NCBI GenBank assembly: GCA_965209115.1
Contig: CBDBQD010000002.1
Span: 1,223,890-1,287,889, forward strand
Source of the DNA: Acidimicrobiales bacterium
GTDB taxonomy: Bacteria; Actinomycetota; Acidimicrobiia; Acidimicrobiales; CATQHL01
Length of the DNA: 64,000 nt
Reading direction: 5' to 3'
The notes beneath the pieces are model-generated. The model was not told the origin of the DNA. It worked only from the letters and a program-made list of their open reading frames with translations, and did not search any database. Positions 21,795-41,148 of this stretch are shown here, piece by piece (within the stretch, counting starts at the first letter, position 1; each line of letters begins with the position of its first letter). Made by a program: the position numbers and the translations under genes.

Positions 21795-22955
21795 GTGAGC
21801 GTGGATCCCGAAGTGGCCGACGAACTGGTCGCCACGATCGCGGCCTGGGTGGATCGGGAGGTCGTGCCCGAGGCGAGCCGCTTCGAGCACGCCGACGAGT
21901 TCCCCGAGGCCATGTTCACTCGGATGTGCGACTTCGGCCTGTTCGGCGCCACGATCGAGGAGGCCTATGGCGGCCTCGGACTCGACGCACTGACCTACGC
22001 CCGCATCGTCGAGGAGTTGTCTCGGGGCTGGATGTCCCTCGCGGGAATCCTCAACACCCACGTGCTGTCGGTGGCCATGATCACCCGCTTCGGAACTCCC
22101 GAGCAGCGGGAGCGATTCCTGCCGCGCATGGTGGACGGCTCGCTGCGGTCCGCCTTCTCGCTGTCGGAACCCGACGCGGGCAGCGACACCCAGAACATTC
22201 GCTGCCGGGCAATCCCCGACGGCGACGAGTGGCTCGTCAACGGCACCAAGATGTGGGTCACCAACGGCATGCGCGCCGGCCTGGTGATGCTGCTGGCGCG
22301 CACCCCCGATGACCGGATCACCTGCTTCGTCGTGGAGAAGACCCCGGGCCCGGCCGACGGGGGGCTGACGATCAGCCGCAAGATCGACAAGCTGGGCTAC
22401 AAGGGCGTCGAGACGGTGGAGATGTCCTACGTCAACCACCGTGTGCCCGACGCCAACATGCTCGGCGGCCCCGAGGGTCTGGGCAAGGGCCTGCGCTACG
22501 CGCTTGCCGCCCTCGAGCTGGGGAGGGTCAACATCGCGGCCCGCGCCGTGGGGGTGGGCCAGGCGGCCTACGACGCCGCAATGGCCTATGCGCAGGAGCG
22601 CGAGACGTTCGGGCGGCCCATATTCGAGCACCAGGCCGTGCGCTTCATGCTGGCGGAGATGGCGACCAAGCTGCACGCCGCCCGGCTGCTGACCCACGAC
22701 GCCGCCCGGCGCTACGACGAGGGCCAGCGCATCGACCTCGAGGCGGGGATGGCGAAGCTGTTCGCCTCCGAGGCCGCCTACGAGATCGCCACCGACGCCA
22801 TGCGCATCCACGGCGGCTACGGCTACACCACCGAGTACCCCGTGGAGCGCTACTACCGGGACACGCCGCTGATGATCATCGGCGAGGGCACCAACGAGAT
22901 CCAGAAACTCGTCATCGCCCGCCAACTGCTCTCCCGCTGGCTGGAGAAGAATTAA
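21795..22955 (+). CDS. acyl-CoA dehydrogenase
   Basis: GTG 21795 (VSVDPEVADELV...). Motifs: SEPDAGSD, KMWVTNG and the C-terminal YRDTPLMIIGEGTNEIQKLVIAR. The upstream part of ORF 21231..22955 is antisense to IOR. Confidence 0.9.
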   Translation: MSVDPEVADELVATIAAWVDREVVPEASRFEHADEFPEAMFTRMCDFGLFGATIEEAYGGLGLDALTYARIVEELSRGWMSLAGILNTHVLSVAMITRFGTPEQRERFLPRMVDGSLRSAFSLSEPDAGSDTQNIRCRAIPDGDEWLVNGTKMWVTNGMRAGLVMLLARTPDDRITCFVVEKTPGPADGGLTISRKIDKLGYKGVETVEMSYVNHRVPDANMLGGPEGLGKGLRYALAALELGRVNIAARAVGVGQAAYDAAMAYAQERETFGRPIFEHQAVRFMLAEMATKLHAARLLTHDAARRYDEGQRIDLEAGMAKLFASEAAYEIATDAMRIHGGYGYTTEYPVERYYRDTPLMIIGEGTNEIQKLVIARQLLSRWLEKN

Positions 22956-23143
22956 TGCCCAGGAACGCGGGCGAGAAGTTTGTGGCCACCGGCGGCGGCG
23001 AGCCGGTGCGGCCCGCGCGGGTCGAACGATCGGGGCGGCGAGAGCTGGGGCAGGACGTCGGGGTGTTCGAGTACCCGGAGGACTTCAATGAGCCGCTGTC
23101 GGCGGGCCTGCTCGGCGCCTTCGAGGGCGAGAGCGCTGATTGA
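22955..23143 (+). CDS. small hypothetical protein with an antitoxin-like C-terminal tail
   Basis: 62 aa. Its ATG overlaps the ACAD stop by 1 nt. The tail RRELGQDVGVFEYPEDFNEPL resembles the (D/E)DFDxPL tails of some type II antitoxins, but no N-terminal DNA-binding fold is recognisable. Confidence 0.3.
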   Translation: MPRNAGEKFVATGGGEPVRPARVERSGRRELGQDVGVFEYPEDFNEPLSAGLLGAFEGESAD

Positions 23144-23252
23144 CATAGGCGTGTGCCATGGATGCGGACGCCGGCCGGTCGCTTAGGGGCGGTCTCGACG
23201 GCTGCGGGAGGTAGCGGCTCGTGCCGCAACCGTTTCGTAGACTGGTTTCCCC

Positions 23253-23325
23253 GCCCCCGTAGCTCAGGGGACAGAGCAGGGGACTTCTAATCCCAAGGCC
23301 GCAGGTTCGAATCCTGCCGGGGGCG
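23253..23325 (+). tRNA. tRNA-Arg (anticodon TCT)
   Basis: Hand-folded cloverleaf: acceptor GCCCCCG/CGGGGGC, D arm GCTC-AGGGGACA-GAGC, anticodon loop CTTCTAA, T arm GCAGG-TTCGAAT-CCTGC, discriminator G. Total 73 nt. Confidence 0.9.
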
Positions 23326-23510
23326 CGGCGCCTCATCGTCGGGTATGGCACCGTGACAGCGGAGTGCACCACCGATCGGGCGACTGGCGGTTGACATCCG
23401 GACGGCGGTTCGGCGTAGTCGTCCAGACCGATGCCCTGCGCAGCGTCCTCGACCCGACCTGCCCACACCGCGGCGGGGGTTGAGCCACCTCGAGGCCGGT
23501 GGCGTCGGAG

Positions 23511-23712
23511 TTGGCGGCGTCCGAGGTGTCGGTAAGGCTGTCTCACCCCGTTCGTACGATCGGGTCCCTCGATCGAGGAGCCGAGACGAAGGCCGTGGCA
23601 GAACATTCGGTCATCGAGCAGACTGAGACGACGTGGAATCCAACCACGGGTTGTGCCCGCACGTCGCCGAGCCGCGACCACTGCTACGCGCTCGCTAAGC
23701 GGCTCAAGTCAG
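23511..23712 (+). pseudogene. decayed copy of the leader and first ~45 codons of the DUF5131 (Gp37/Gp68) gene
   Basis: Aligns by eye with 32981-33190. [38 protein letters not shown] corresponds to [40 protein letters not shown] in the intact gene. The middle Cys is lost, there are 3-nt and 6-nt deletions, and similarity stops at ~23712. Confidence 0.75.
23530..23564 (+). promoter_or_regulatory. conserved 35-nt leader element, copy 1
   Basis: cggtaaggctgtctcaccccgttcgtacgatcggg differs at 2 of 35 positions from 33001-33035. It contains the -10-like hexamer TACGAT. Confidence 0.35.
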
Positions 23713-23818
23713 AGATCCACCTCAGGTACGATCATCGCCGAGGTTCGCGGTGCGCAGTGCGGCGGCACTCACATCCGTCGCCGGTACGCGAGCGCACGTC
23801 GTCGGGAGGAGGCAGCAG

Positions 23819-24772
23819 ATGGCACGTTCAGACCTGCTGTTGAATCTCGTCGAGGCTGAGCGTTCGGGGGACCGGCAGCGGTTCTTGATGGTTGTCGAGT
23901 CGGTAATCGCAGAGGAGCGCCGGAAGCAGCATCATCTCGTTGCGGACCGGCTCGAAGAACTCATCTCGACGGCTGGATCCTCGGCGACCGCCCGGTACCA
24001 GAGCCCACCGGTAGCCCAGGACGGCCTGCTGCTGGAGGTCGTGCCGAGGCGGCGGCTGGCGGACCTGTCGCTGACGTCCGAAACGGCGACAACAGTGTCC
24101 GAGGTCATTGAGGAGCACCGCCGACGTGATGTGCTGAGGGCGCACGGGCTCGAGCCACGGCACCGGCTGATGCTTGTTGGGCCGCCCGGCAACGGCAAGA
24201 CGAGCCTGGCTGAGGCGATCGCCGCGGAACTGATGGTGCCGATGTTGGTGGCCTCGTATGAGGCGCTGATCAGCAGCTACCTCGGTGAGACTGCCAGCCG
24301 ACTCGCTGCGCTGTTCGAGTTCGTTCGATCGCGAGAATGCGTCTTGTTCTTTGATGAGTTCGACACGATTGCAAAGGAGAGGGCGGACGACCACGACACC
24401 GGTGAACTCAAGCGCGTGGTGTCGTCCCTCTTGTTGGGCGTTGATCGGCTACCGAGCCACGTAGTCGTGGTGACAGCGTCGAACCACCCGGAAGTCTTGG
24501 ACCGGGCCGCCGGGCGGCGGTTTCAAGTGCACGCAAACCTGCCGGCGCCGTCGCAGGCCGAGATCCAGCGGTTCGTCGAGCGACAGGAGAAGCGCGGTCA
24601 CGGCTTCGGCGTCAGTTCTGAGACGATCGCGAAGACCATGGTCGGTGCGAGTTACTCCGAGGTCGAAGACCTCCTGCTGGGTATTCGCCGCCGCTATGTG
24701 CTCGGCCTCCCAGATGCCGACCTGAAACGGACGGCACGAGAACGGCTGGATAGGTGGCGGAAGCAGACCTAG
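23819..24772 (+). CDS. ietA: AAA+ ATPase, IetA-like
   Basis: ATG 23819. Walker A GPPGNGKTS, Walker B VLFFDEFD, sensor region VVVTASNHPEVLD. Immediately followed by, and overlapping, an S8 protease gene, which is the IetAS architecture. Confidence 0.6.
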   Translation: MARSDLLLNLVEAERSGDRQRFLMVVESVIAEERRKQHHLVADRLEELISTAGSSATARYQSPPVAQDGLLLEVVPRRRLADLSLTSETATTVSEVIEEHRRRDVLRAHGLEPRHRLMLVGPPGNGKTSLAEAIAAELMVPMLVASYEALISSYLGETASRLAALFEFVRSRECVLFFDEFDTIAKERADDHDTGELKRVVSSLLLGVDRLPSHVVVVTASNHPEVLDRAAGRRFQVHANLPAPSQAEIQRFVERQEKRGHGFGVSSETIAKTMVGASYSEVEDLLLGIRRRYVLGLPDADLKRTARERLDRWRKQT

Positions 24773-27312
24773 TAGCACCGCCTTGGATCGTGCTCGAGGC
24801 GGTGCGGAAGGAGCGTATGCCGCCGCCGCAGCAGACAGGTCGGCCGCGTCTTCATACCCCTGACCATGGTGATCAGGTCACGCGGCGGGATCCTGGTTGG
24901 GCGTCGATCCGCAGAGCGTTCGATGCCGAGCGGATGCGGGTCGAGACTGCTGTCGGGTCGGAGGAGCCCGAACTCGTCGTTGTCATCGAGGTAGCGCGGT
25001 CGGTCGATGACTTCCTCGACACGGTTGAGAACATCGACGGCCTTGAGTTCCTGTTCGAGGACGCGGACGACCGCCCGCCGGACGACGACTTCCACCTGCT
25101 GCAGAAACGGAGGCATGCTGACGAGTACCGGCGGACGGCTTCCACGTCGCTCGCGTCCACCGTGTACTTCGTGTTCACCGACGCTGCCGCAGTCCGCGAC
25201 TTGTTGTCGATGTGGAAGCAGTTCAAGGAGAACCCATCCCTCCGACTTCCTCGGCCGTGGAGGCAGGTCTTCGCTCAGCAGGTCGAGGACGTGCGAGCCT
25301 GGGGGCCCAAGGATCGGTTGACAAAGTCGTTCGACGACGCCGTCCAGGCGGCGGAGTGGGAGGGGCTTGAGCGGATCTCCGTCGAGGTTGAACTCTGGTA
25401 TCGACGAGACCAGGAGGGTCGTGACGAGGCGGGTCGCCGCGTTCGCGACGAGGCGGCGGCGTGTGGGGGAACGGTCGTCAACGAGTGCGTGATTGAGGGC
25501 ATCGACTATCACGCACTGCTCGTTGAACTTCCCGTCGGAGAGGCGAAGTCCTTCTTCTCGGAGAACCCGGGGAATCTCGTCAGTGCGAAACAGGTGATGT
25601 ACCTGCATCGAAGCACGCAGTCAACGGTTCGTCGCCTTGAGGCCGTCGGCGAGTCACCCGCAGTCACCTCGGACGGCCCGAAACCGTCGGGATCACCGCG
25701 GATCGCGCTGCTCGATGGGTTGCCGATGGCGAACCACGACCTGCTCGCGGGCCGTCTCATCATTGACGACCCGGACGACCGCGAGCAGAGCTACCCAGCG
25801 CGGCACCGCCGGCACGGAACGGCGATGGCATCGGTCATCATCCATGGGGACCTGTCGGCGGCGCGGGATGTCTTGAGCCGTCCGCTGTACGTCCGCCCGA
25901 TCCTCGTAGCGCCCGACCGAGACGACGAGCCCGAGCGATACCCGAGAACCGAGTTGGTGTGCGATGTCGTGCACCGCGCGATTGTGCGAATCTGCGAGGG
26001 CGAGGGCGACGCTCCGCCGGTGGCTCCCGGTGTGAAGGTGGTCAACATCTCGATTGGTGATCCGGATCGCCATCTGGCTCGCCGTGTCAGTCCTCTGGCC
26101 CGATTACTGGACTATCTCGCTGACCGCTACGACCTGCTGTTTGTAGTCGCTGCGGGCAATCACCCTAAGCCGATCTCCTACGAGCCTCAGACCGGGGATC
26201 TCACGACCGACCTGCGGCGGGCGATCGTTGACGACTCACTTGATCGCCGGTTGCTTTCGCCGGCCGAATCGATCAACTCTCTGACGGTCGGCGCCCTCAA
26301 TTCGGATCGCAGCAACTCGGTTGTGAGGGCAGCAGACCATGTGGAGCCCGCGCCACCCGGCTCGCCGGCGCTGTATTCCGCGGTCGGCCGTGGCTTCGCT
26401 CGTTCGGTGAAGCCGGAGGTGTTCGCTCCCGGTGGCCGCCAGGTCTACGCGGAAGGCTTCGATAACGGTCAACCGGTACGAACGCTGCGGCCGATCGACA
26501 ACGTGGTGATAGGGCCGGGAGTGCTCCTTGCTCAGCCCAACTCCGCTGGCTCGACGGTCTCAGCTGAGTACTGGCGAGGCACGAGCCCGGCGACGGCCCA
26601 TGTCACGAGGTTCGCGTCCGATGTCCTCGACCGACTGGAACTCCTGCAGGCCGACCGCGGCGACGATGCTGTGCCCGACGAGTCGCTGACCGTGTTGACG
26701 AAGGCGCTTGTCGTCCACGCGGCAAGCTGGGGTGAGCCAATGACCTGGGAGACTGACGCGGGGGTCTCGGGCTCAGAGCGCCGCGGCGGGCTGAGCAGAC
26801 TGCTCGGTTACGGGCGCGTGTCGCCGTCCTGGCTGTTCACCGACGCGCCGCACCGGGCGACCCTGATTGCGACTGACGTGCTCGATGCCAACGAACAGGC
26901 ATTCTTTGACATCCCGCTCCCAGAGGGGCTCCGTTCGTCGACACACCGGCGCCGTCTCCGACTTACCTTGGCATGGTTCTCGCCGATCAACCCGAGGCAC
27001 CAGTCGTACCGCCGCGCTCGACTCGCACTTGAGATTCCGAAGACGAGTCGGACATTGATCGAAGTGGATCGCGCCGAGGTCCACCACGATACGGCGGTGC
27101 GTGGCACCGTCCAGCACGAGCTTCTCGAGGGGACCGATGCGCCGGTGTTCGACGACGGTGACAGATTCGGGGTCTTGGTGACGGCCCGGGCCGGAGCTGG
27201 AGCGCCTGGGGACAACATCCGGTTCGGATTGGTAGCCACCCTCGAGACCGCGATTGAGGCGGGCATCGCAGTGCGCGAGCAGATGCGAGCGAGGGTGCGG
27301 GTACGGCGATAG
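24754..27312 (+). CDS. ietS: S8-family (subtilisin-like) serine peptidase, IetS-like
   Basis: 852 aa. Catalytic-triad contexts are IALLDGLP (Asp), HGTAMASVIIHG (His) and GTSPATAHVTRF (Ser), with VVAAGNH as the oxyanion Asn. A large N-terminal domain of unknown function precedes them. The start codon (GTG 24754) is uncertain. Confidence 0.6.
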   Translation: MAEADLVAPPWIVLEAVRKERMPPPQQTGRPRLHTPDHGDQVTRRDPGWASIRRAFDAERMRVETAVGSEEPELVVVIEVARSVDDFLDTVENIDGLEFLFEDADDRPPDDDFHLLQKRRHADEYRRTASTSLASTVYFVFTDAAAVRDLLSMWKQFKENPSLRLPRPWRQVFAQQVEDVRAWGPKDRLTKSFDDAVQAAEWEGLERISVEVELWYRRDQEGRDEAGRRVRDEAAACGGTVVNECVIEGIDYHALLVELPVGEAKSFFSENPGNLVSAKQVMYLHRSTQSTVRRLEAVGESPAVTSDGPKPSGSPRIALLDGLPMANHDLLAGRLIIDDPDDREQSYPARHRRHGTAMASVIIHGDLSAARDVLSRPLYVRPILVAPDRDDEPERYPRTELVCDVVHRAIVRICEGEGDAPPVAPGVKVVNISIGDPDRHLARRVSPLARLLDYLADRYDLLFVVAAGNHPKPISYEPQTGDLTTDLRRAIVDDSLDRRLLSPAESINSLTVGALNSDRSNSVVRAADHVEPAPPGSPALYSAVGRGFARSVKPEVFAPGGRQVYAEGFDNGQPVRTLRPIDNVVIGPGVLLAQPNSAGSTVSAEYWRGTSPATAHVTRFASDVLDRLELLQADRGDDAVPDESLTVLTKALVVHAASWGEPMTWETDAGVSGSERRGGLSRLLGYGRVSPSWLFTDAPHRATLIATDVLDANEQAFFDIPLPEGLRSSTHRRRLRLTLAWFSPINPRHQSYRRARLALEIPKTSRTLIEVDRAEVHHDTAVRGTVQHELLEGTDAPVFDDGDRFGVLVTARAGAGAPGDNIRFGLVATLETAIEAGIAVREQMRARVRVRR

Positions 27313-27390
27313 TCAATGAGCAACCCACGGTCACGATGAACGCAACCCTCCGGGAGAATCTGAGCGAGTCAACGTCGCCTGGACGGCGCG

Positions 27391-30210
27391 ATGGCTGACC
27401 ATGCCGCTGGCGGGTTGACGCCTGAGCAGGAGGCTCGGCAGGAGATCGACGCGCAGTTGGTGGCGTGCGGGTGGGTGGTGCAGGACCACAGGCACGCGGC
27501 GATTGCTGCCGCTCGTGGGGTGGCGGTACGAGAGGTGCCTACCGATGCCGGGCGCGCTGACTACGTCCTGTTCGTGGACCGCCAAGCGGTGGGCGTGATC
27601 GAGGCCAAGCCGGTTGGGACGACGTTGACCGGGGTGGAGTCGCAGACGCTGCGGTACAGGGTTTCATTCCCCGACGAGCTGCCCGCTGTCCTGGTTAAGG
27701 AGTCGTTGCCTTTCGGTTACGAGTCCACCGGTGTCGAGACCCGGTTCACCTGCGGGTTGGATCCGGTGCCGACGTCGCGGCGGGTGTTCGCATTTCACCG
27801 GCCCGAGACGATGGCTCGATGGATTGACGACCACATCGAGGCAAAGGCCGGCACGCTGCGCGCCGGGTTGCAACTGTTGCCCGATCTCGATCCCCGAGGG
27901 CTCTGGACCGCTCAGGCGGAGGCCATTCGGGGCTTGGAGGAGTCCCTACTAGCCAACCGCCCGCGGGCATTGATCCAGATGGCCACCGGCGCCGGCAAGA
28001 CGTTCACCGCTGTCAACGCCATCTACCGGCTTGTGCGTCACGCCGGGGCGCAGCGTGTGCTGTTCCTGGTGGATCGGGCGACCCTGGGCCGCCAGGCCGT
28101 GCGGGAGTTCGAGGGTTTCGACACGCCTGATGACGGCCGGAAGTTCACCGAGTTGTACAACGTGCGCCGGCTCACCTCCTCGCACCTCGACATGGCCGCC
28201 GAGGGCGCCACGAAGGTGCACGTCTCGACGATCCAGCGGCTGCACTCGCTACTGCGGGGCGAGGAGATCGACGAGGCCGTCGACGAGCAGTCCGGCTTCG
28301 AGGTGGCGCCCGAGCAGCCCGTGGAGGTGGTCTACAACCCGGCGGTGCCCGTCGAGTCCTACGACGTGATCGTCGTCGACGAGTGCCACCGCTCCATCTA
28401 CGGGGTGTGGCGGCAGGTGCTGGAGTACTTCGACGCTTTCCTGGTCGGCCTGACCGCCACGCCGGGCATCCAGACCTTCGCCTTCTTCGAGCAGAACCTC
28501 GTCACCGAGTACGGCCACGCCGAGGCGGTGGCGGACCGGGTGAACGTGGACTTCGACGTGTTCCGCATCCGCACCGAGATCACCGAGGGCGGCAGCACCG
28601 TGCCTGCTGGGTTCGTCACGGGGTTCCGGGACCGTCTGACCCGCTCTGAGCGCCTCGAGCGGATCGACGCAGAGGTGGATTGCGACGCCGCAGAGTTGGA
28701 TCGCAGGGTGGTGGCGACCGATCAGATCCGCACCATCACAGCGACGCTGCGGAACTCGCTGCCGACGATGTTCCCCGACCGCGAGCGACATACCAATGGG
28801 CGGCTGCGCCACATCCCCAAGACACTGATCTTCGCGAAGGACGACAGCCACGCCGACGACATCGTGCAGATGGTGCGGGCGGAGTTCGGCCTCGGCAACG
28901 AGGGGGCGGTGAAGATCACCTACCGTTCGGGCGATTCGGGTCACCGCCCCGAGGACCTGCTGGCGCAGTTCCGGAACTCCTATAGCCCTCGTATCGCGGT
29001 GACCGTGGACCTCATCGCGACCGGCACCGACGTGAAGTCCATCGAGTGCGTGGTGTTCATGCGGCGGGTGCGCAGCCGCAACTACTTCGAGCAGATGAAG
29101 GGGCGTGGTGTGCGGGTCATCGACCCCAATGACCTGCGGGCCGTGACGCCCGACGCCACCGTGAAGGACCGCTTCGTGCTCGTCGACGCCGTCGGCGTAA
29201 CCGACGACGATCTGCACGACACCGTCCCGCTGGAGCGTCAACGCCACGAGAGCTTCGACAAGCTGCTGAGCCGCATCGGCCTTGGCTCCACCGCCGAGGC
29301 CACAGTGTCGTCGGTGGCGTCACGCCTGGCCCGCCTCGACCAGCGGATGACCGCCGGCGACCGCGCGGAGGTGGAAGCGGTCGCCGGGATGAGCCTCAGC
29401 GCTTTGGCCCATCAACTGGTGGAGGCGCTCGACCCCGACCGGCACATCGAAGCCGCCGCCGAGGCCGTCGGCACCGATGATCCCTCCGTCGAGCAGGTCG
29501 CCGCCGCCCGAGAGAGGATCGTCCGCCAGGCCCTGGAGCCGCTGGCCGGCAACCCGGAGTTGCGGCAGAAGCTGATCGAGGTCCGCCGAAGCTACGAGCA
29601 GATGATCGACTCGGCCTCACCCGATACGGTCATCTCCGAAGGGTTCTCCGTCGACGCCACCGACAGGGCCCGCCGCCAAGTCGAGTCGTTCCGAAAGTTC
29701 ATCGACGAGAACCGCGACCAGATCACCGCCCTCCAGGTGCTCTATGGCCAACCCCGTGGCGGGTTCACCTATACCGACGTCAAGGAACTGGCCAACGCCA
29801 TCGCCCGCCCACCCCACCGCTGGACCACCGAGAACCTCTGGGTTGCCTACGAGACTCTCGATGCCAGCAAAGTCCGAGGTTCGGGACACCGGGTCAACAC
29901 CGACCTCGTCAGCCTCGTCCGATTCGCGCTCGGCCGAACCGATGAGTTGGTCGCCTATCCCGAGTTGGTGGATGAGCGCTTCGAGGCGTGGATCCAGCAG
30001 CAGCGAAACGCCGGGCGCACCCTCACCGACGAGCAGATCGAGTACCTCAGCCTGATCCGCGATCACCTCGCGGGGAGTCTCGCGATCGCTCCGCCCGATC
30101 TCCAGAACCCACCCTTCAGCACCCACGGCGGCCTCGGCCGAGCAAGACAGCTCTTCGGGGCTGAACTCACTTCGCTGATGGACGAACTGATGGAAGTGCT
30201 AGTGGCGTGA
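27391..30210 (+). CDS. hsdR: type I restriction enzyme R subunit
   Basis: 939 aa. N-terminal nuclease-type region GRADYVLFVDRQAVGVIEAK, helicase motif I QMATGAGKT, motif II VVDECHRS, and an EcoEI-R-like C-terminal domain. Confidence 0.9.
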   Translation: MADHAAGGLTPEQEARQEIDAQLVACGWVVQDHRHAAIAAARGVAVREVPTDAGRADYVLFVDRQAVGVIEAKPVGTTLTGVESQTLRYRVSFPDELPAVLVKESLPFGYESTGVETRFTCGLDPVPTSRRVFAFHRPETMARWIDDHIEAKAGTLRAGLQLLPDLDPRGLWTAQAEAIRGLEESLLANRPRALIQMATGAGKTFTAVNAIYRLVRHAGAQRVLFLVDRATLGRQAVREFEGFDTPDDGRKFTELYNVRRLTSSHLDMAAEGATKVHVSTIQRLHSLLRGEEIDEAVDEQSGFEVAPEQPVEVVYNPAVPVESYDVIVVDECHRSIYGVWRQVLEYFDAFLVGLTATPGIQTFAFFEQNLVTEYGHAEAVADRVNVDFDVFRIRTEITEGGSTVPAGFVTGFRDRLTRSERLERIDAEVDCDAAELDRRVVATDQIRTITATLRNSLPTMFPDRERHTNGRLRHIPKTLIFAKDDSHADDIVQMVRAEFGLGNEGAVKITYRSGDSGHRPEDLLAQFRNSYSPRIAVTVDLIATGTDVKSIECVVFMRRVRSRNYFEQMKGRGVRVIDPNDLRAVTPDATVKDRFVLVDAVGVTDDDLHDTVPLERQRHESFDKLLSRIGLGSTAEATVSSVASRLARLDQRMTAGDRAEVEAVAGMSLSALAHQLVEALDPDRHIEAAAEAVGTDDPSVEQVAAARERIVRQALEPLAGNPELRQKLIEVRRSYEQMIDSASPDTVISEGFSVDATDRARRQVESFRKFIDENRDQITALQVLYGQPRGGFTYTDVKELANAIARPPHRWTTENLWVAYETLDASKVRGSGHRVNTDLVSLVRFALGRTDELVAYPELVDERFEAWIQQQRNAGRTLTDEQIEYLSLIRDHLAGSLAIAPPDLQNPPFSTHGGLGRARQLFGAELTSLMDELMEVLVA

Positions 30211-31487
30211 GCGACGCGCTGCCCTCCGGCTGGACAACGGCCACCCTTGACAACGTGTCTCGGGTTGTCCTCGGACAGTCTCCCCCAGGCAGTAGCTACA
30301 ACGATCGCGGCGAAGGTATCCCGTTCTTTCAGGGAAAGGCTGAGTTCGGAGATCGATACCCGGTCATTCGGAAGTGGACCACGGAACCGAAGAAGATTGC
30401 GCCAAGGGGATCAGTCCTCGTATCGGTACGGGCCCCGGTCGGGCCAACCAATGTTGCGCCGGTCGACTGCGCGATCGGTCGGGGTCTCGCGGCCGTAGGA
30501 GCGCTTGGAGAGATCTCTTCCGAATACTTGCTCTGGGCGATGCGCCAATCAGCTTCCAACCTCATCAGTGAGGCGACTGGAAGCACCTTCGACGCGATTA
30601 CCGGCGACCAGTTGAGAGCACACAGTCTACGGATCGCTCCACTCGATGAACAGAAGCGGATCGTTGCTGCCATCGAGGAGCACTTCTCCCGCCTCGACGC
30701 TGCCGAGGCCACGCTGACGGCTGCAAGACGAAAGCTCGCCTCTCTTCGACGCTCTGCGGTTGCGCGACTGTTTGATCAATCTGACTGGACATGGACGACT
30801 CTCGGGGAGGTCGCCGAGATCAAGGGGGGTGTGACCAAGGACTCGAAACGTCAGAGCGATCCGAGCTACGTCGAGGTCCCATACCTACGAGTCGCAAATG
30901 TCCAGAGGGGCTACCTGGATCTCTCGGAGGTGTCGCGGATTCGTGTACGTCCCGCCAAGGCCGAACAACTTGCCCTTCGCACCGGTGACGTTCTGTTCAA
31001 CGAAGGCGGTGACCGCGACAAACTCGGCCGGGGCTGGGTCTGGGAAGGACAGATCGACGGCTGCATACATCAGAATCATGTGTTTCGCGCTCGATTGAGC
31101 AGTGGAGAGTTCGATCCGTACTTCGTGTCGGTGCACGGGAACACGTGGGGCCAGCGATGGTTCGAGACTCACGGGAAGCACACCACGAATCTCGCGACGC
31201 TCAACCTGACGACATTGAAGTCGTTCCCGGTCCCGGCGCCACCGCTCGTCGAGCAGCGCAAGGTTGTGGCCGAGTTCCAGTCAATCCGCAGGAGCGAGGA
31301 CCGCCTGCGCGCTGAGATCAGTCGGGCGGAGAGCCGCTCGGCCGCTCTGCGGCGTTCGATCCTCGCTGACGCCTTCTCCGGGCGACTCGTGCCGCAGGAT
31401 CCCGATGACGAGCCTGCGTCGGTGCTCCTCGAGCGCATCGCCGAGTCTCGGCCGGCGAAGCCGCCTCACCGGAGGACGCGATCGTGA
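30207..31487 (+). CDS. hsdS: type I restriction enzyme S (specificity) subunit
   Basis: 426 aa. Two target-recognition halves are separated by conserved helices (PLDEQKRIVAAIEEHFSRLD and PPLVEQRKVVAEFQSI). GTGA overlap with hsdR. Confidence 0.9.
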   Translation: MSDALPSGWTTATLDNVSRVVLGQSPPGSSYNDRGEGIPFFQGKAEFGDRYPVIRKWTTEPKKIAPRGSVLVSVRAPVGPTNVAPVDCAIGRGLAAVGALGEISSEYLLWAMRQSASNLISEATGSTFDAITGDQLRAHSLRIAPLDEQKRIVAAIEEHFSRLDAAEATLTAARRKLASLRRSAVARLFDQSDWTWTTLGEVAEIKGGVTKDSKRQSDPSYVEVPYLRVANVQRGYLDLSEVSRIRVRPAKAEQLALRTGDVLFNEGGDRDKLGRGWVWEGQIDGCIHQNHVFRARLSSGEFDPYFVSVHGNTWGQRWFETHGKHTTNLATLNLTTLKSFPVPAPPLVEQRKVVAEFQSIRRSEDRLRAEISRAESRSAALRRSILADAFSGRLVPQDPDDEPASVLLERIAESRPAKPPHRRTRS

Positions 31488-32941
31488 CCTCCGATCCGAA
31501 GGCGTTGGTGCAGAGGCTGTGGGATTTCTGCGACGTCCTGCGTGATGACGGGTTGTCGTACGGGGAGTACCTGGAGCAGCTCACCTATCTGCTGTTCTTG
31601 AAGATGGCCGACGAGCAGTTCGAGCAGCTCGGCGGGCAGCGGGTGGTGCCGGCGGGGTTCGGCTGGGCGTCGCTGTTGCGGCGCTCGGGCGTCGAGTTGG
31701 AGCAGCACTACAGCACGGTGCTCGAAGAGCTCGGCGCGGGCGAGGACATGCTGGGGGTGGTATTCGGGAAGGCGCGCAATCGGGTGCAGGATCCGGCGAA
31801 GCTGGAGCGGCTCATCAAGGAGTTCGTGGACCGCCACGAGTGGCTGAGCCTGGATGCCGATCTGAAGGGCGACGCCTACGAGGGACTGATCGAAAAGACC
31901 GCGCAGGAGGGCGCCCGCGGGGCGGGCCAGTACTTCACGCCCCGGGCGTTGATCTCGGCCATCGTCGACGTGATGCGGCCGGGCCCCGATGATCGCGTCT
32001 GCGACCCGGCGTGTGGCACCGGCGGCTTCTTCCTCGGCGCCTACCAGTCGATCCTCCAGCGCTTCCCGCACCTGGAGCCGCACCAGACGGCGCACCTGCG
32101 GTCGGGGGCGTTCACGGGTTGGGAGATCGCGGATCTGCCGGCGCGGCTGTGCGCCATGAATCTGCTGCTGCACGGCATCGAGAGCCCCGAGTCAGACTCG
32201 CCGATCCGCGTCGACGACGCGCTGCGGGACTCTCCGAGCGCCCGCTTCGACATGGTGCTCACGAACCCGCCGTTCGGGCGGTCCTCCTCGGATAGCTACG
32301 AGCGGGAGGACTTCTGGGCCGCCACCCGCAACAAGCAACTCAACTTCGTGCAGCACATCGCCGGCCTGCTTCGCATCGACGGCACCGCGGCGGTGGTGGT
32401 GCCCGACAACGTGCTGTTCGAGGCCGGCGCCGGCGAGACGATCCGCCGCCGCCTGCTGGCTGACTGCGAGGTCCACACCCTGCTGCGCCTGCCGACGGGC
32501 ATCTTTTACGCCCAGGGCGTCAAGGCCAACGTCTTGTTCTTCCGCCGCCGCCCCGGCGCCGAGGCGGCCTGGACCCGCGAGCTGTGGGTCTACGACCTGC
32601 GCACCAACAAGCACTTCACCCGCAAGCAGAACCCCCTGCGCCGCGCCGACCTCGACGACTTCGTGACCTGCTACCGCCCCGACGAGTTCCACCGCCGCGA
32701 GGAGTCCGAACGCTTCAAGCGCTTCACCTACGAGGAACTGCTGGCCCGCGACAAGGTCAGCCTCGACATCTTCTGGCTCCGCGACGACAGCCTCACCGAC
32801 ACCGACGACCTCCCACCCCCCGCCGTCCTCGCCGCCGAGATCGCCGAAGACCTCCAAGCCGCCCTAGAAGAAATCCAAACCCTCGCCGACTCCCTGGCAG
32901 CCACCGAAATCGCGTCGGGCGGGGAGCAGACCGGAGACTGA
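31484..32941 (+). CDS. hsdM: type I restriction enzyme M subunit (N6-adenine methyltransferase)
   Basis: 485 aa. N-terminal LWDFCDVLRDDGLSYGEYLEQLTYLLFLKM, motif I DPACGTGGF, catalytic NPPFG. GTGA overlap with hsdS. Confidence 0.9.
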   Translation: MTSDPKALVQRLWDFCDVLRDDGLSYGEYLEQLTYLLFLKMADEQFEQLGGQRVVPAGFGWASLLRRSGVELEQHYSTVLEELGAGEDMLGVVFGKARNRVQDPAKLERLIKEFVDRHEWLSLDADLKGDAYEGLIEKTAQEGARGAGQYFTPRALISAIVDVMRPGPDDRVCDPACGTGGFFLGAYQSILQRFPHLEPHQTAHLRSGAFTGWEIADLPARLCAMNLLLHGIESPESDSPIRVDDALRDSPSARFDMVLTNPPFGRSSSDSYEREDFWAATRNKQLNFVQHIAGLLRIDGTAAVVVPDNVLFEAGAGETIRRRLLADCEVHTLLRLPTGIFYAQGVKANVLFFRRRPGAEAAWTRELWVYDLRTNKHFTRKQNPLRRADLDDFVTCYRPDEFHRREESERFKRFTYEELLARDKVSLDIFWLRDDSLTDTDDLPPPAVLAAEIAEDLQAALEEIQTLADSLAATEIASGGEQTGD

Positions 32942-32980
32942 CAGGACCCCGATTCACGGCGCTGCAACGCGGAGGCCGAC

Positions 32981-33190
32981 TTGGCGGCGCTGGCGGGCAG
33001 CGGTAAGGCTGTCGCACCCCGTTCCTACGATCGGGATCGTGAATAGTCGAGCCGGGAAGAAGGGCATGGCCGACCGTTCGGGCATCGAGTGGACCGAGAC
33101 GACGTGGAACCCGACCACGGGTTGTGACCGCACGTCTCCGGGGTGCGACAACTGCTACGCGCTCGCGCTCGCCAAGCGGCTCAAGGCCAT
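32981..33190 (+). repeat. intact counterpart of the diverged direct repeat at 23511-23712
   Basis: Covers the leader plus the 5' coding region of the DUF5131 gene. By eye it is roughly 70-95% identical to the left copy, depending on the sub-segment. Confidence 0.75.
33001..33035 (+). promoter_or_regulatory. conserved 35-nt leader element, copy 2
   Basis: cggtaaggctgtcgcaccccgttcctacgatcggg. Matches copy 1 at 33 of 35 positions and lies 30-60 nt upstream of the DUF5131 start candidates. Confidence 0.35.
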
Positions 33191-33818
33191 GGGTCAGCCC
33201 AAATATCGCAATGACGGAGACCCCCGCACCAGCGGCCCCGGCTTCGCGCTGACCCTCCATCCCGACACCCTGGACGTCCCCTACACGTGGCGGTCGCCGC
33301 GGCTGGTCTTCGTCAACTCGATGAGCGATCTCTTCCACCCCGACGTGCCGCTGGACTTCATCCGCCGCGTGTTCGAGGTGATGGCTGACACGCCGCAGCA
33401 CACCTACCAGATCCTCACCAAGCGCTCCCGACGGCTGCGCAACCTCTCCGAGGGCCTCGACTGGCCCGACAACGTCTGGATGGGCGTCAGCGTCGAGACC
33501 GAGCGCTACGCCTTCCGCATCGACCACCTCCGCCAAGTCGGCGCCAAAGTCCGCTTCCTCAGCGCCGAACCCCTGCTCGGAGCGCTCCCCGACCTCGATC
33601 TCACCGGCATCGACTGGCTGATCGCCGGCGGCGAGAGCGGCCCCGGTGCCCGGCGCATGGAGGAGGAGTGGGTCCGCGACCTCCGCGACCAGTGCGGATC
33701 CGCCGGCGTCGCCTTCTTCTTCAAGCAATGGGGAGGCCGAACCCCCAAAGCCAACGGCCGCGACCTCGACGGCAAACACCACGACGAGATGCCACAGCGC
33801 TACTTCGCCTTCACATGA
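33039..33818 (+). CDS. DUF5131 / phage Gp37-Gp68 family protein (three-Cys motif)
   Basis: Family hallmarks: IEWTETTWNPTTGCDRTSPGCDNCYA (Cx6CxxC), FVNSMSDLFH, ILTKR, LSAEPLL, IAGGESGPGARRM, FFFKQWGG. ATG 33066 (MADRSG) is an alternative start. Confidence 0.85.
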   Translation: MNSRAGKKGMADRSGIEWTETTWNPTTGCDRTSPGCDNCYALALAKRLKAMGQPKYRNDGDPRTSGPGFALTLHPDTLDVPYTWRSPRLVFVNSMSDLFHPDVPLDFIRRVFEVMADTPQHTYQILTKRSRRLRNLSEGLDWPDNVWMGVSVETERYAFRIDHLRQVGAKVRFLSAEPLLGALPDLDLTGIDWLIAGGESGPGARRMEEEWVRDLRDQCGSAGVAFFFKQWGGRTPKANGRDLDGKHHDEMPQRYFAFT

Positions 33819-34894
33819 CTTCACGCCTGGAGGGGTGGGACTGGTGGTCTGAGGCGAAGCTCCAAGTCTTGGCGGACTACTTGCAGGCGTTCACTCGAGT
33901 CGTCCGAGGCGGATCGGAGGAAGCCATCTACCTCGATCTGTTCGCCGGCAGCTTCGAAAACGACCGGCGCCACGGCACGGGCACCTTCGCGGGCTCGACT
34001 CAGATTGCCCTCCGCACCGAACCGAGGTTCACAAAGCTGGTGTTCTTCGAGTTGCCGGATAGAGCCGCCCGCCTCCGCGCCGACATCCAACAGGCTCGAC
34101 CCTCGGACCATCGCTGGCGCGTCAAGGCGGGCGACTGTAACGAAACGTTGCCATCGGCGCTCTCGATGCTCAGACAGGTCCGGTGGGCGCCAACCTTCGC
34201 GTTCCTGGATCCCCGCGGTCTGCAGGTCGAGTGGAGCACTGTCCGAACCCTCGCCGACTGGCGGCGCGACAAGAAAACGAAGGTGGAGCAATGGATTCTG
34301 ATGCCAGAGCCGGCGATCGCCCGTGTACTCGGCCTACGCGGCGTGCAAGGAACACGCAGCGCAGAGCGTCTGGATCGGCTCTTCGGTTCCCGTGATTGGC
34401 TTCCGATCCACCAGGGCCGGCGGAGCGGCGCACTCACGCCAGAGGACATGCGTGCTGAGTTCGTCAACCTCTACCGGTGGCGGCTCGAGAAGGTGCTCGG
34501 CTACCGCACCACCCACGCGCTCCAGATTGTGGCCACGGGTGGCCAACCCGTCTACACGCTCATCTTCGCCACAGACTCCCCACCTGGCGACGCCATCATG
34601 GGGTATCTCTACAACTCCGCCGCGACCGCGACGATCCCCGCGATGCAAGCGCGGGCCAAGGTCGCTCGACAGCATCGTCGCGACGACGACGCCGGAGTCC
34701 TCCGATTGCCGGGCCTAGACGAATACGAGTTGGCGACTGCCGTGCCTGAGCAGCGTACGTACGAGCATGAGCTGCCTTGGGAGCCCGAGCCGATAGTCGA
34801 CGACACATTCGAACTCGACAGGGACGAACCGGACATTGACCCAGACGACATCAAGTGGAACAGCGAGTTCGACGACCACAATGAGGACACGTAG
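33815..34894 (+). CDS. three-Cys-motif partner protein TcmP-like
   Basis: ATG 33815 overlaps the DUF5131 stop (ATGA). Reads WDWWSEAKLQVLADYLQAFTRV..IYLDLFAGSF....FAFLDPRGL, followed by a very acidic C-terminal tail. Confidence 0.7.
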   Translation: MTSRLEGWDWWSEAKLQVLADYLQAFTRVVRGGSEEAIYLDLFAGSFENDRRHGTGTFAGSTQIALRTEPRFTKLVFFELPDRAARLRADIQQARPSDHRWRVKAGDCNETLPSALSMLRQVRWAPTFAFLDPRGLQVEWSTVRTLADWRRDKKTKVEQWILMPEPAIARVLGLRGVQGTRSAERLDRLFGSRDWLPIHQGRRSGALTPEDMRAEFVNLYRWRLEKVLGYRTTHALQIVATGGQPVYTLIFATDSPPGDAIMGYLYNSAATATIPAMQARAKVARQHRRDDDAGVLRLPGLDEYELATAVPEQRTYEHELPWEPEPIVDDTFELDRDEPDIDPDDIKWNSEFDDHNEDT

Positions 34895-35256
34895 GCCGAA
34901 TTCAATGGATCGCTCCATTCGTACGAGTCCGCGCGCCTCCCTTGAACTGGAAGCGCTGAGCGAGGATCCTGACACCGAATCCGGCAGTGGCGAAGTCGCT
35001 ACAGCGCGCTTAGGTGGTTTACATCTGTTCGACTTTCCCGCAGCGCACACGGTGGACGCCGCACCGAGTCGGAGACAACCCCAACCGGGTCAGTTCGGAG
35101 TCGGTGATCGGGACGGGGTGCGGCACTTGGCCCTCATCGTCTCGTCTGCTACGACCGATCGACACACGCTCGATCGAGGTGGCCACCGCCATACCGAGCC
35201 AACATGCGACCGGTGGTCCCCTCGCCACCATCTCCCGGAGTCAAGCGAGGGTGGAG

Positions 35257-35285
35257 TTCAAGGGCAGTTCAGTCACGGCTATTCT
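35257..35285 (+). promoter_or_regulatory. sigma-70-like promoter, probably giving a leaderless or near-leaderless transcript
   Basis: TTCAAG (35257-35262), a 17-nt spacer, then TATTCT (35280-35285). The -10 element ends 8 nt before ATG 35294, and no Shine-Dalgarno sequence is visible. Confidence 0.35.
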
Positions 35286-35293
35286 CATTTGGC

Positions 35294-36682
35294 ATGAAAC
35301 GGGATGACATACCGATCGGCGAGCTCTTGCTTGACGCTGAGAATCCGCGGCATGGTGAGGTTGAGGACCAAGATGCGGCCTTGGAGCGACTCGTCGCGAT
35401 CCGTCCGCAGCATCTCAGGAGCCTCACTGAAGACATCGCAAAGAACGGACTTCACCCGGGACTCGGCTTTCTGGTCTTCCCGACTGAGGACGGTCGCTTT
35501 GTGGTTCTGGACGGTAATCGGCGACTGGCCGCGATCAAGCTCCTCACGCAACCAGATTCTGCGCCAGCGTCCTGGCGGCCAATCACCACCGAGATCGAGG
35601 TTGACCTCAACTCGTTCGAGAGACTGCCGTGCACCATCTTAGATTCGCGTGAGGACGGGAGGCTGTGGCTCGAACGGATGCACACAGGCCAGATGAACGG
35701 AGTCGGGGTTGTGCAATGGCCGCCAATGGCGCAGCATCGCTTTAGTCCCCGCAACGATCAGCGAGGTCGAGGAGCTGCCGCGTTGGCCTGGTTGAGCAGC
35801 CGAACTGAGCCGGGCGAGGCCGATCTTCATGAAGCGATCGAGACCGTGGAAGGCGAGATCACGACTTTTGGCCGGCTTGTGCAGACCAGTGCTGTGCGGC
35901 CGATCTTGGGGTACGACTTCAAGGGCAATGAACTGGTGCCAACCGAGGGCACCAGCGAACTCGTCCTCTACGAACGCTTGATTTCCGCTGTCAAAGACCT
36001 CGCAGGCGGAAAGGATGTCAACGACCTGCGGACGATTCCGCAGCGCGTCGCATACGCCCACGCCTTGGCCGGTTCAAGCGAGAGCGACGACGAGAGCGAC
36101 CCTCGGGCACAGGAGGAACCTGCCGAGCAGGCCGCAGACGAGTCGGAGGGGGAACAATCCACGGGTGGCGAGGATCAGGAACCGGCGAGCGAGGGTGAGT
36201 CGCAGGAAGCGACCAAGCCCAAGAGGCGGAAGCGGTCGAGTCAGCCGAAGGCGAGCGTTCTCGACGCTCCCCTGCCAGATGTTTTCAGACCTCGAATCGT
36301 GCGAATCTCAGAAGAACTCTGCGCTCTCAACGTTCACGAGCATCCGAACGCTGTGGCCGTACTCCTGCGGCTGCTGATCGAAATGACTACGGAGCAGTGT
36401 CGACGCGCAGAGAATCTCTCAAAGCAGGGCGACCTGAGGGAGCACATCGAACGCGTGGTCCAGCGAGTTCAGACGCCCCAAGACCAGAAGGACAACGTGT
36501 TCCACGGCGTCACGGTAAGTCTGAGCACTCCCAAAGACCGTGACCACACGAAAAACTTCAATCAACATGTCCACAATGTGGACTACCACCCTGTGCCGAC
36601 GGACTTGATCAACACCGCGGAGAACTACCGGCCGTACTTCGAGCGGATCGGTCAACGCCTAGCTGGCAAGGCGGCCAGTTGA
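35294..36682 (+). CDS. ParB N-terminal-domain (ParB/Srx-fold) protein with an acidic linker and an unknown C-terminal domain
   Basis: ATG 35294. LLLDAENPRHGE and VVLDGNRRLAAIKLL are ParB/sulfiredoxin-fold motifs. A low-complexity acidic stretch (SSESDDESDPRAQEEPAEQAADESEGEQSTGGEDQEPASEGESQEATKPKRRKRS) is followed by ~125 aa with no family I recognise. Confidence 0.6.
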   Translation: MKRDDIPIGELLLDAENPRHGEVEDQDAALERLVAIRPQHLRSLTEDIAKNGLHPGLGFLVFPTEDGRFVVLDGNRRLAAIKLLTQPDSAPASWRPITTEIEVDLNSFERLPCTILDSREDGRLWLERMHTGQMNGVGVVQWPPMAQHRFSPRNDQRGRGAAALAWLSSRTEPGEADLHEAIETVEGEITTFGRLVQTSAVRPILGYDFKGNELVPTEGTSELVLYERLISAVKDLAGGKDVNDLRTIPQRVAYAHALAGSSESDDESDPRAQEEPAEQAADESEGEQSTGGEDQEPASEGESQEATKPKRRKRSSQPKASVLDAPLPDVFRPRIVRISEELCALNVHEHPNAVAVLLRLLIEMTTEQCRRAENLSKQGDLREHIERVVQRVQTPQDQKDNVFHGVTVSLSTPKDRDHTKNFNQHVHNVDYHPVPTDLINTAENYRPYFERIGQRLAGKAAS

Positions 36683-36685
36683 GCG

Positions 36686-37549
36686 ATGCCATATGTGAGT
36701 CCGCTGCGATATCCGGGCGGAAAATCGCTGTTGGCGAAATTCGTCGCAGATGTGCTAGCCCGCCTGCCAGACGTCCAGCACTACATGGAGCCGTTCGCAG
36801 GGGGCGCGGCTGTGGCGCTTCGTCTGCTCTACGAAGGCAGCGTGTCATCAGTGACCATAGGCGACTCCGATCCGGCCGTCGCCGCGTTCTGGCGTTGTGC
36901 GGTCCACCGAAGCGACGAGCTGATCGAGAGGGTGACTGAGTGCCAGGTGGTGATCGGCACATGGCACACCCAGTATCAGACTCTGACGAACCCAGACCGC
37001 ACAGACGACCTTGACCTCGGGTTCGCGACCTTCTTCCTCAACCGCACCAACCGATCAGGAATCTTGCGCGCACGACCCATTGGAGGCTTGCGACAGGATG
37101 GCGAGTGGCGCTTGGACTGCCGCTTCAACAAGGACGACCTTGTCCAGCGGCTGCGCAGAGTCGCCCAGTACGCAGCTCAGATCGACATCTTCGAAGGCGA
37201 CGCGATCGACCTACTCGCGCGCGTCGACAAGGCTCGCAGACAGAGCACCTTCGTATATGTGGACCCGCCCTACCTGACGCGTTCCTCGGACCTGTATCTG
37301 GACGAGATGTCATTCGACGGGCACAAGCAGATCGCACAGCTGCTGCGCGACGAATTCCCGTACTGGATGGCGAGTTACGACATCGATGATCGCGTGCGGT
37401 CGGAGCTGTACTCCGAGAGCCCCATATTGACCTTCGCGCTGCGCCACTGCGCATCAAGCAACCATATTGGAACCGAGCAGATCGCGTTCTCTGATGCATG
37501 CGTGCTGGACGACGAAGTCCGCTACCCCAGAGCCGCTGCCTGGGTCTGA
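36686..37549 (+). CDS. Dam-like (D12 class) N6-adenine DNA methyltransferase
   Basis: 287 aa with PLRYPGGK, EPFAGGAAV (SAM motif), FFLNRTNRSG and VYVDPPY (catalytic motif). Starts 3 nt after the ParB-like gene. Confidence 0.85.
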   Translation: MPYVSPLRYPGGKSLLAKFVADVLARLPDVQHYMEPFAGGAAVALRLLYEGSVSSVTIGDSDPAVAAFWRCAVHRSDELIERVTECQVVIGTWHTQYQTLTNPDRTDDLDLGFATFFLNRTNRSGILRARPIGGLRQDGEWRLDCRFNKDDLVQRLRRVAQYAAQIDIFEGDAIDLLARVDKARRQSTFVYVDPPYLTRSSDLYLDEMSFDGHKQIAQLLRDEFPYWMASYDIDDRVRSELYSESPILTFALRHCASSNHIGTEQIAFSDACVLDDEVRYPRAAAWV

Positions 37550-37760
37550 ATTCGGGCAGACTACCTTCAGCCGGTGATGTACCGGCCCCAGGCTGCCATT
37601 GTGGCGTCGCGGGTGAGTAGGTGGCGTCGCTCGTGGACGGCGTCTTGGTCGTGGTGAGCGACGTGAACGGGTAGCCGCCAGGTCCCAGGTCACGGCGTGC
37701 TGTGGATGGTGCCCGGCGTTGGTTCTTGGACCCCGTGAGGGTGGCGCGTAGGATCGGAGC

Positions 37761-41096: not shown

Positions 41097-41148
41097 CCGC
41101 TCTCCGGGGCTACCTTATGGTTCGCCGAACCGGCTGGTGAGGAGCAAT

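Follow-up and report, generated by a model that had tools for sequence, protein, structure and literature searches.

A defence island without mobility genes between tRNA-Arg(TCT) and an E1-like core gene in an Acidimicrobiales genome

How do four defence systems come to stand in a row directly behind a tRNA gene when neither an integrase nor a duplicated attachment site accompanies them? This question is posed by a 64,000-nucleotide stretch of an Acidimicrobiales genome (hereafter the window), in which about 14.5 kb, beginning at position 23327, the first base past tRNA-Arg(TCT), and ending near position 37797, hold nine genes, all on the plus strand, that make up four defence modules (IetAS; hsdR-S-M; DUF5131-TcmP; PD-Lambda-5). 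The right end of this island lies inside the 5′ end of a core gene for an E1-component/transketolase-like protein, called E1 here. We propose, with a probability of roughly 0.7, that anti-phage cargo gathers between the tRNA and E1 at a chromosomal hotspot common to the genus, one that has no mobility function of its own and was built stepwise, likely by homologous recombination. The source genome (G000; 3.81 Mb, 70% GC, two contigs, one of which is designated C2) was compared with congeners, each species being represented by one genome and several of these being fragmented metagenome-assembled genomes (MAGs).

A variable interval between conserved anchors

The comparison is framed by the following anchors and edges.

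ends at 22955: acyl-CoA dehydrogenase gene, core-like left flank
23253–23326, plus strand: tRNA-Arg(TCT), left anchor (ARAGORN; Rfam RF00005, 68.8 bits)
23327–23439, no strand: left edge of the island, non-coding (blastn)
37647–37797, plus strand: right edge of the island, common to the occupied genomes G012, G003, G010, G009 and G015
37761–40130, plus strand: E1-component/transketolase-like core gene, right anchor (Pfam, NCBIfam)

We located the interval in 15 congeners (16 genomes with the source). Seven of them had an empty site (G008, G017, G013, G001, G005, G014 and G011), and eight carried different content, from 0.5 to more than 23 kb, between the same core flanks. The tRNA, which was the sole match of the Rfam search, matches at 92–100% across the genomes of the genus and has an exact full-length copy in eight relatives. 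Sequences of the relatives are identical through the tRNA, the split from the empty-site genomes begins at position 23327, and homology with those genomes restarts at about position 37798, within the 5′ end of E1. A preliminary description of this DNA, made from its letters alone, had set the right border at 37549, which proved too far to the left; the alignment of relatives that it had proposed for finding the empty-site boundaries showed that the relatives do not keep this gene order. The E1 start codon of the empty allele stands 1–2 nt past the tRNA, and the protein begins MSQRTDTAR...; in the occupied allele, the right edge gives E1 a new start (GTG at 37761) and a new upstream region. On the left, the island of G012 (23.5 kb) has a matching edge, with 90% identity over 23327–23384 (58 bp) and 85% over 23400–23439 (blastn). 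When the displaced 5′ end of E1 was sought at the left junction, the alignment remained at noise level. The empty-site arrangement leaves no room for a promoter between the tRNA 3′ end and the E1 start (loci L031–L033, L042 and L043), which points to co-transcription with the tRNA or to an internal start in those genomes.

The filled sites differ from one another, as listed here.

G003: 560-bp remnant, with the occupied-type right edge retained
G016 and G002: DUF1214 and sulfotransferase genes with core-like GC content at third codon positions (GC3); G002 also has a beta-lactamase-family gene
G010: 7.3 kb with PDC-S01, a DUF222-HNH protein and trypsin-like proteins
G012: 23.5 kb with IS5 and ISL3 transposases, orthologous hsdRSM (hsdR 84%, hsdM 91%), a 2167-aa STAND NTPase with AAA ATPase, and HepT-/HicB-type genes
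G009: more than 25 kb on three contigs, with a second type I restriction-modification (R-M) system, Shango SngABC, then a DUF5131 fragment, IetAS and hsdR as in the window
G015: IetAS at 90.5% identity, with IetS truncated and only remnants of hsdR and hsdM

The G003 remnant (~560 bp, locus L035) also holds a possible minus-strand open reading frame (ORF) of ~100 aa as well as a run rich in A and T (ttctactacggaaaaatatctggtcagtgtagaaagatttc), which stands out at this GC content.

No mobility function was found at the site. Profiles for tyrosine and serine recombinases (PF00589, Phage_integrase; PF00239, Resolvase) were searched in nine whole genomes, the source and eight congeners, and matched neither in the window nor within ~100 kb of the site in any of the nine; PF00239 had no match anywhere in the source genome. 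The ten longest unassigned ORFs (nine antisense and one on the plus strand in the spacer) had no Pfam match, and a consensus scan for promoters and terminators stayed at background level. Between positions 23327 and 41000, no copy of any tRNA segment was detected, either as an exact match of at least 12 nt or over 14–30 nt with 1–8 mismatches. Both marks of a tRNA-targeting integrative island, a recombinase and a distal repeat of the tRNA 3′ end, are consequently missing. The preliminary description, too, had noted no integrase, transposase or recombinase ORF and no copy of the tRNA 3′ end at the right border, and the profile and repeat searches bear out both statements.

Single-gene trees of rpoB, on the other contig, and of a second core gene 21 kb away returned the same well-supported sister groups, (G000, G008, G017), (G003, G005), (G009, G016) and (G002, G014), each of which mixes occupied and unoccupied sites. 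Mapped on the rpoB tree, junction type requires four changes over 10 taxa, which equals the mode of shuffled labels; occupancy of the site shows no phylogenetic signal. The E1 tree, against every other marker, joins G009 with G012 (support 99/95), and approximately unbiased (AU) tests reject the species-tree groupings for E1 (p=0.002 and ~1e-102), which argues that the flank was exchanged between species that both carry occupied alleles. Accordingly, G012 has a G009-like E1 gene beside its island together with a native left flank.

A change of identity within E1 was seen in the source genome itself. Against its sister G008, identity in E1 is 93.3–93.4% over the 5′ 1.1–1.3 kb and 96.3–96.7% over the 3′ part, a drop with a Fisher p of 0.0004–0.002 at cut points chosen after inspection, and in the 5′ half of the gene the two genomes no longer group as sisters. 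The left flank is uniform at 95–96% up to the dehydrogenase stop codon, and its tree is congruent. This pattern fits, without proving, a replaced tract in G000 from just left of the tRNA to ~1.2 kb into E1.

Variation is also seen to the left of the tRNA. There, past the dehydrogenase stop, lies a segment of 278 bp (22955–23232) that is missing in the sister G008 and in G003 and G015, is found at 73–79% identity in G017, G002, G011 and G007, and overlaps a 105-aa minus-strand ORF without a family match. The gap between dehydrogenase and tRNA measures 2–10 kb in several congeners, indicating that this side of the tRNA is variable as well. To the right of E1, a 381-aa ORF at 40414–41559 encodes both a glyoxalase domain and a YgjP-like metallopeptidase domain; at 0.85, its GC3 lies slightly below core values. 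YgjP-like genes are often found with type I R-M systems.

Modules and layers of the island

The four stacked modules that the preliminary description had read from the tRNA 3′ end onwards are all present and intact according to Pfam, PADLOC and NCBIfam, and PADLOC, which it had recommended, matched IetAS, type I R-M, the candidate system PDC-M41 and PD-Lambda-5. Every module ORF is open, and the expected motifs were found (GPPGNGKT, DECH, NPPF, DPPY and the DUF5131 Cys cluster). The modules are presumably active.

23530–23708, plus strand: orphan DUF5131 leader/promoter and first ~50 codons (PF07505, E=5.7e-9, profile positions 2–51; BLASTP 62% identity; alignment)
23819–24772, plus strand: IetA, AAA+ ATPase with Walker A GPPGNGKT (PADLOC PDLC04232, 1.2e-132, 440 bits; Pfam AAA)
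24754–27312, plus strand: IetS, S8 subtilase-family protease (PADLOC PDLC04233, 2.3e-254, 844 bits; Pfam Peptidase_S8)
27391–30210, plus strand: hsdR, type I restriction subunit of the EcoEI/EcoAI-like family (Pfam ResIII, Helicase_C, EcoEI_R_C; NCBIfam NF008521; DECH box)
30207–31487, plus strand: hsdS, specificity subunit with two target-recognition domains (PADLOC Specificity_I, 1.5e-84; Methylase_S)
31484–32941, plus strand: hsdM, N6-adenine methyltransferase (Pfam N6_Mtase, 8.5e-65; PADLOC MTase_I, 8.6e-182; NPPF and DPACGTG motifs)
33001–33818, plus strand: DUF5131 gene, coding sequence 33039–33818, leader/promoter 33001–33038 (PF07505, 5.5e-101; PADLOC PDC-M41B, 2.2e-112)
33815–34894, plus strand: TcmP, three-Cys-motif partner protein (TIGR04474, 169.8 bits against a cut-off of 53; PADLOC PDC-M41A, 1.6e-27)
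34895–35254, no strand: non-coding spacer of 360 bp between the TcmP and PD-Lambda-5 cassettes
35255–37558, plus strand: PD-Lambda-5 cassette of 2.3 kb, promoter and genes A and B
35294–36682, plus strand: PD-Lambda-5_A (PADLOC, 2e-77, 463/466 profile positions)
36686–37549, plus strand: PD-Lambda-5_B, D12 methyltransferase with DPPY motif (PADLOC, 4.2e-96, 277/291 profile positions)

The baseline for composition was a set of 400 windows of equal size drawn at random from the genome. The island (23327–37760) has a GC content of 0.648 against 0.700 ± 0.017 (0.2 percentile) and a tetranucleotide L1 distance at the 99.5 percentile, and both of its flanks are typical of the genome; the shift that had at first been described as visible in the letters holds against this baseline. 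Sub-blocks within the island are real and are clearest at third codon positions, with GC3 at 0.90–0.94 in core genes, 0.92 in hsdM, 0.88 in DUF5131, 0.86 in hsdR, 0.78 in IetA, 0.76 in IetS, 0.78 in TcmP, 0.71 in hsdS, and 0.70 and 0.75 in PD-Lambda-5 A and B. The preliminary description had contrasted both IetAS and the last module with hsdRSM. In total GC, however, IetAS and the R-M block are nearly alike (0.652 and 0.661), and only PD-Lambda-5 (0.608) stands apart.

PD-Lambda-5 is a clear case of an acquired cassette. Its two genes lie on the same strand, 3 nt apart, behind a promoter (TTCAAG ... TATTCT) that ends ~8 nt ahead of the ATG at 35294, a spacing that fits a leaderless transcript. 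The promoter region 35255–35293 (TTCAAG ... TANNNT) is kept in four unrelated contexts (the window and loci L055–L057). The 2.3-kb unit also occurs in three other Acidimicrobiia genomes at 92, 78 and 72% identity, in unrelated contexts, where it sits in defence islands with type I R-M, AbiEii, KwaB-like or LmuB-like genes, and homology runs from the promoter, ~40 nt before the ATG, to at most 9 nt past the stop codon. The closest cassette is 92% identical although the rpoB of that genome is only 77% identical; PD-Lambda-5 has thus been transferred horizontally. The related records with ~76–78% rpoB identity are MAGs of Acidimicrobiaceae and Candidatus Poriferisodalis. At the DNA level, neither TcmP nor the 360-bp spacer nor PD-Lambda-5 has a counterpart in the 20 other genomes of the family, apart from a 90-bp piece of the spacer, which matches G001 at 83%; the spacer has no significant fold, and no ORF in it matched a family.

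The source genome carries a second, divergent PD-Lambda-5 pair (C2:1541026–1543271), with 31% (A) and 54% (B) amino-acid identity to the copy in the window. The module announced as a ParB-like/Dam pair is the already described system PD-Lambda-5, with gene B as its D12 methyltransferase; the ParB-like label for gene A, however, stayed below threshold (Pfam ParB_N, E=0.18 in one of five members; GmrSD_N, E=0.076 in three of five). A PDB sequence search with PD-Lambda-5_A was empty, and an AlphaFold2 model built from a five-sequence alignment had a mean confidence (pLDDT) of 51, too poor for a structure search. A phage vehicle was considered and rejected, as neither PD-Lambda-5_A nor IetS has a close relative in IMG/VR contigs (single-protein queries, which find close relatives only).

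The left part of the island has a different history. IetA and IetS are adjacent and co-oriented with a 19-nt overlap, the longest ORF of IetA begins at GTG 23750, and IetS covers 843 of 855 positions of its PADLOC profile. Simple patterns located the Walker A motif GPPGNGKT, HGT and GTSPA; the Walker B motif and the Asp motif of the Asp-His-Ser triad were not located in that way. Between the tRNA and IetA, the segment 23530–23708 is an 83%-identical direct repeat (~180 bp, D1/D12) of 33001–33185, the beginning of the intact DUF5131 cassette, with its Cys motif degenerated. We read this segment as the scar of a former DUF5131 cassette, whose orphan promoter may now drive IetAS. The junction between fragment and IetA is also kept in G009, marking the event as old, and the block of DUF5131 fragment, IetAS and hsdR is 87.2% identical between G000 and G009 over 6187 bp.

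The adjoining type I R-M system has hsdR, hsdS and hsdM without internal stops and belongs to a family with three copies in the source genome, two of them followed by DUF5131; block homology spans 27373–32904. Both paralogues have 85–88% nucleotide identity in hsdR and 93–94% in hsdM, with different target-recognition domains in hsdS, which is the most variable part among paralogues and orthologues alike, only short central segments being kept in the paralogues and in G012. One paralogue (C2:358–368 kb; C2:358132–367699; hsdR 88%, hsdM 94%) is followed by DUF5131 at 86%, and in the other (C2:842–847 kb; C2:841750–847304) hsdR is split over two frames, apparently by a frameshift. Beside the latter lie weak integrase-like fragments (C2:840103–840258 and C2:847755–847943). 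The former adjoins a PsyrTA pair (C2:353485–356644; RecQ-like PsyrT, 1.2e-267; PsyrA, 6.8e-81), which makes that locus a second composite defence island.

DUF5131, a member of the radical-SAM superfamily (PMC9477430), is coupled to TcmP through an ATGA overlap, the arrangement of the PADLOC candidate PDC-M41, and leader alignment shows 33001–33038 to be conserved. TcmP had no relative in a PDB sequence search. Two further full-length DUF5131 genes occur in the source genome: one at C2:358116–358907, and one at C2:937890–939852, which is accompanied by a TcmP-like PDC-M30A gene and directly follows a type IIG R-M system at C2:935–940 kb. Since an R-M methyltransferase precedes all three full-length copies (type I hsdM twice, type IIG once), DUF5131(-TcmP) may be an R-M accessory and not an independent module.

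By its sharing with other genomes, the island consists of at least three layers. The oldest would be the DUF5131 cassette that is now a scar; the next would be the IetAS-hsdRSM(-DUF5131) block common to other species; and the last would be the private right end, TcmP and PD-Lambda-5, arriving from outside the genus. The left two-thirds are an old block, inherited or exchanged whole. Serial acquisition of cassettes at a tRNA hotspot, as first suggested, is supported by the empty sites, the differing cargo and the layered sharing. What changes is that not every module was acquired separately by this genome, and that homologous recombination, not site-specific insertion at the tRNA, is the likely route.

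Possible routes of assembly

Homologous recombination is the simplest mechanism because the site has conserved edges and core flanks but neither a recombinase nor an attachment site, and it has been put forward both for hotspots that lack an integrase (PMC5635113) and for core defence hotspots (PMC10250203). Under this proposal, double recombination by the host's own machinery would build and exchange the island, with the near-invariant tRNA on the left, the obvious arm on that side, and E1 on the right serving as homology arms for DNA from related species. Sequences shared within islands, namely the conserved edges, the paralogous hsdR and hsdM and the ~180-bp DUF5131 leader repeat, would let islands exchange, gain or lose either whole blocks or single cassettes, and recombination at the flanks probably moved this particular island. 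Each module, as promoter plus genes, would presumably target invading DNA or infected cells without the others: type I R-M by cutting unmethylated DNA, PD-Lambda-5 as an R-M/abortive-infection (Abi)-like pair, IetAS as an ATPase-protease pair, and DUF5131-TcmP as a radical-SAM-family pair regularly found beside R-M systems.

Several points weigh against this account. The flanks of G000 group with those of its empty-site sister G008 (left 95–96%; support of 100/100 for E1 as a whole), this genome shows no long imported tract, and the signal in the 5′ part of E1 depends on post hoc cut points. The divergence of the shared IetAS-hsdR block (87–90% identity) equals that of the core and fits vertical descent with repeated loss too; the island's first base directly follows the tRNA 3′ end, where integrases classically insert; and the trees are of single genes, with one genome per species.

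Such a position behind the tRNA is what an integrative element, or several accreted in tandem, would leave after inserting at the tRNA-Arg 3′ end, losing integrase and attR, and having the cargo fixed. Decay at the site is evident in G015, with its truncated IetS and remnants of hsdR and hsdM, and in G003, and the G012 island harbours IS5 and ISL3 transposases. We nevertheless consider such an origin unlikely, if conceivable as the founding event, given that recombinases are missing within ~100 kb of the site in nine genomes and no tRNA segment is repeated, that the right end swaps the 5′ end of E1 for unrelated sequence without a target duplication, and that PD-Lambda-5 and like cassettes arrive in other islands as bare promoter-plus-gene units. 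Descent of the whole island from the ancestor of the genus, with differential loss and no transfer, would account for the identity of the IetAS-hsdR block (87.2% with G009, 90.5% with G015), which falls within the core range of 85.5–93%, as well as for the deletion remnants in G003 and G015 and the near-native GC3 of hsdR, hsdM and DUF5131. Yet the empty allele, instead of being a deletion junction, is a distinct homologous haplotype, recognizable by its E1 N-terminus and present in the basal lineages G013 and G011; the E1 flank conflicts with the species tree, PD-Lambda-5 was transferred, TcmP and PD-Lambda-5 are private to the source genome, and composition still lies at the 0.2 percentile. 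Descent without transfer therefore seems distinctly unlikely.

An integron-like cassette array (a cluster of attC sites lacking an integron-integrase, CALIN) or another site-specific cassette system could likewise be pictured from nine co-oriented genes with short spacers and discrete, reusable units. This was rejected as extremely improbable: there is no IntI-type recombinase, the spacers hold no attC-like hairpins and fold no better than shuffled sequences (z −1.2 to +1.4), the cassettes have their own promoters, and homology stops at the stop codon without a common end motif. A more far-reaching version of the recombination account, which we regard as doubtful, would treat occupied and empty sites as two old haplotypes kept across species (trans-specific polymorphism) and swapped by recombination anchored in the tRNA and E1. 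The ~180-bp DUF5131 leader/5′ repeat and the hsdR and hsdM paralogues would then be portable homology handles that move the 9.5-kb IetAS-R-M block between DUF5131- or hsdRSM-bearing islands within and between genomes, and DUF5131-TcmP would be a dedicated R-M accessory, not a stand-alone defence. A hotspot refilled stepwise, likely by homologous recombination, remains the reading we prefer.

Significance and comparison with known systems

The locus is of moderate interest, for its cross-species view of turnover, its exact cassette borders, obtained for PD-Lambda-5, hsdRSM and DUF5131, and the recurrent adjacency of R-M and DUF5131, which could point the way for functional studies of the uncharacterised pair DUF5131-TcmP. 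It documents the hotspot logic of E. coli, Vibrio and Pseudomonas in an uncultured, high-GC Acidimicrobiia lineage related to sponge-associated MAGs, where defence genes gather at a site that lacks mobility machinery and takes on new cargo one cassette at a time. It further suggests that a tRNA may mark such a site without an integrase, as the longest near-invariant stretch that recombination between species could use as an anchor.

Among the single modules, IetAS was reportedly described by Gao and colleagues in 2020. As in the systems defined by PADLOC and NCBIfam, an AAA+ ATPase gene adjoins an S8 protease gene in the window; unlike them, the copy belongs to a divergent subfamily, strong against newer PADLOC models but with scores of 206 and 82 bits far short of the NCBIfam equivalog cut-offs of 510 and 900. 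The tested homologues of PD-Lambda-5, all from E. coli, gave broad protection there, and the system has been read as a compacted R-M and Abi system (Vassallo et al. 2022, PMC9519451). The window copy, a putative defence pair, resembles it as a two-gene unit of a D12-type methyltransferase and a partner, both of which match their PADLOC models almost from end to end, but lies in a high-GC actinobacterial chromosome instead of an E. coli prophage. As at other type I R-M loci that have defence genes inside or next to them, the hsdRSM operon is abutted by defence genes and has a variable hsdS, the attached pair here being DUF5131-TcmP.

At the level of the whole island, the likeness to classical tRNA-anchored islands with integrase and att repeats extends to the position just 3′ of a tRNA, the atypical composition and the accessory cargo, whereas neither an integrase nor a duplicated tRNA 3′ end is found in the source genome or eight congeners. 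A closer match is offered by integrase-less hotspots of horizontal transfer (Oliveira et al. 2017, PMC5635113) and the core defence hotspots cDHS1/2 of P. aeruginosa (Johnson et al. 2023, PMC10250203), for which recombining flanks are documented. They share with the window site the conserved core flanks by a tRNA, the variable size and cargo, the low GC content, stacked defence systems, absent mobility genes and signs of recombination in a flanking gene. The window site differs in being compared across species of an uncultured Acidimicrobiia genus and not among strains of one species, in often being completely empty where the cDHS are nearly always occupied, and in an occupied allele that gives the core gene downstream a new 5′ end as well. 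The phenomenon itself is known, and the island is a well-resolved example of it.

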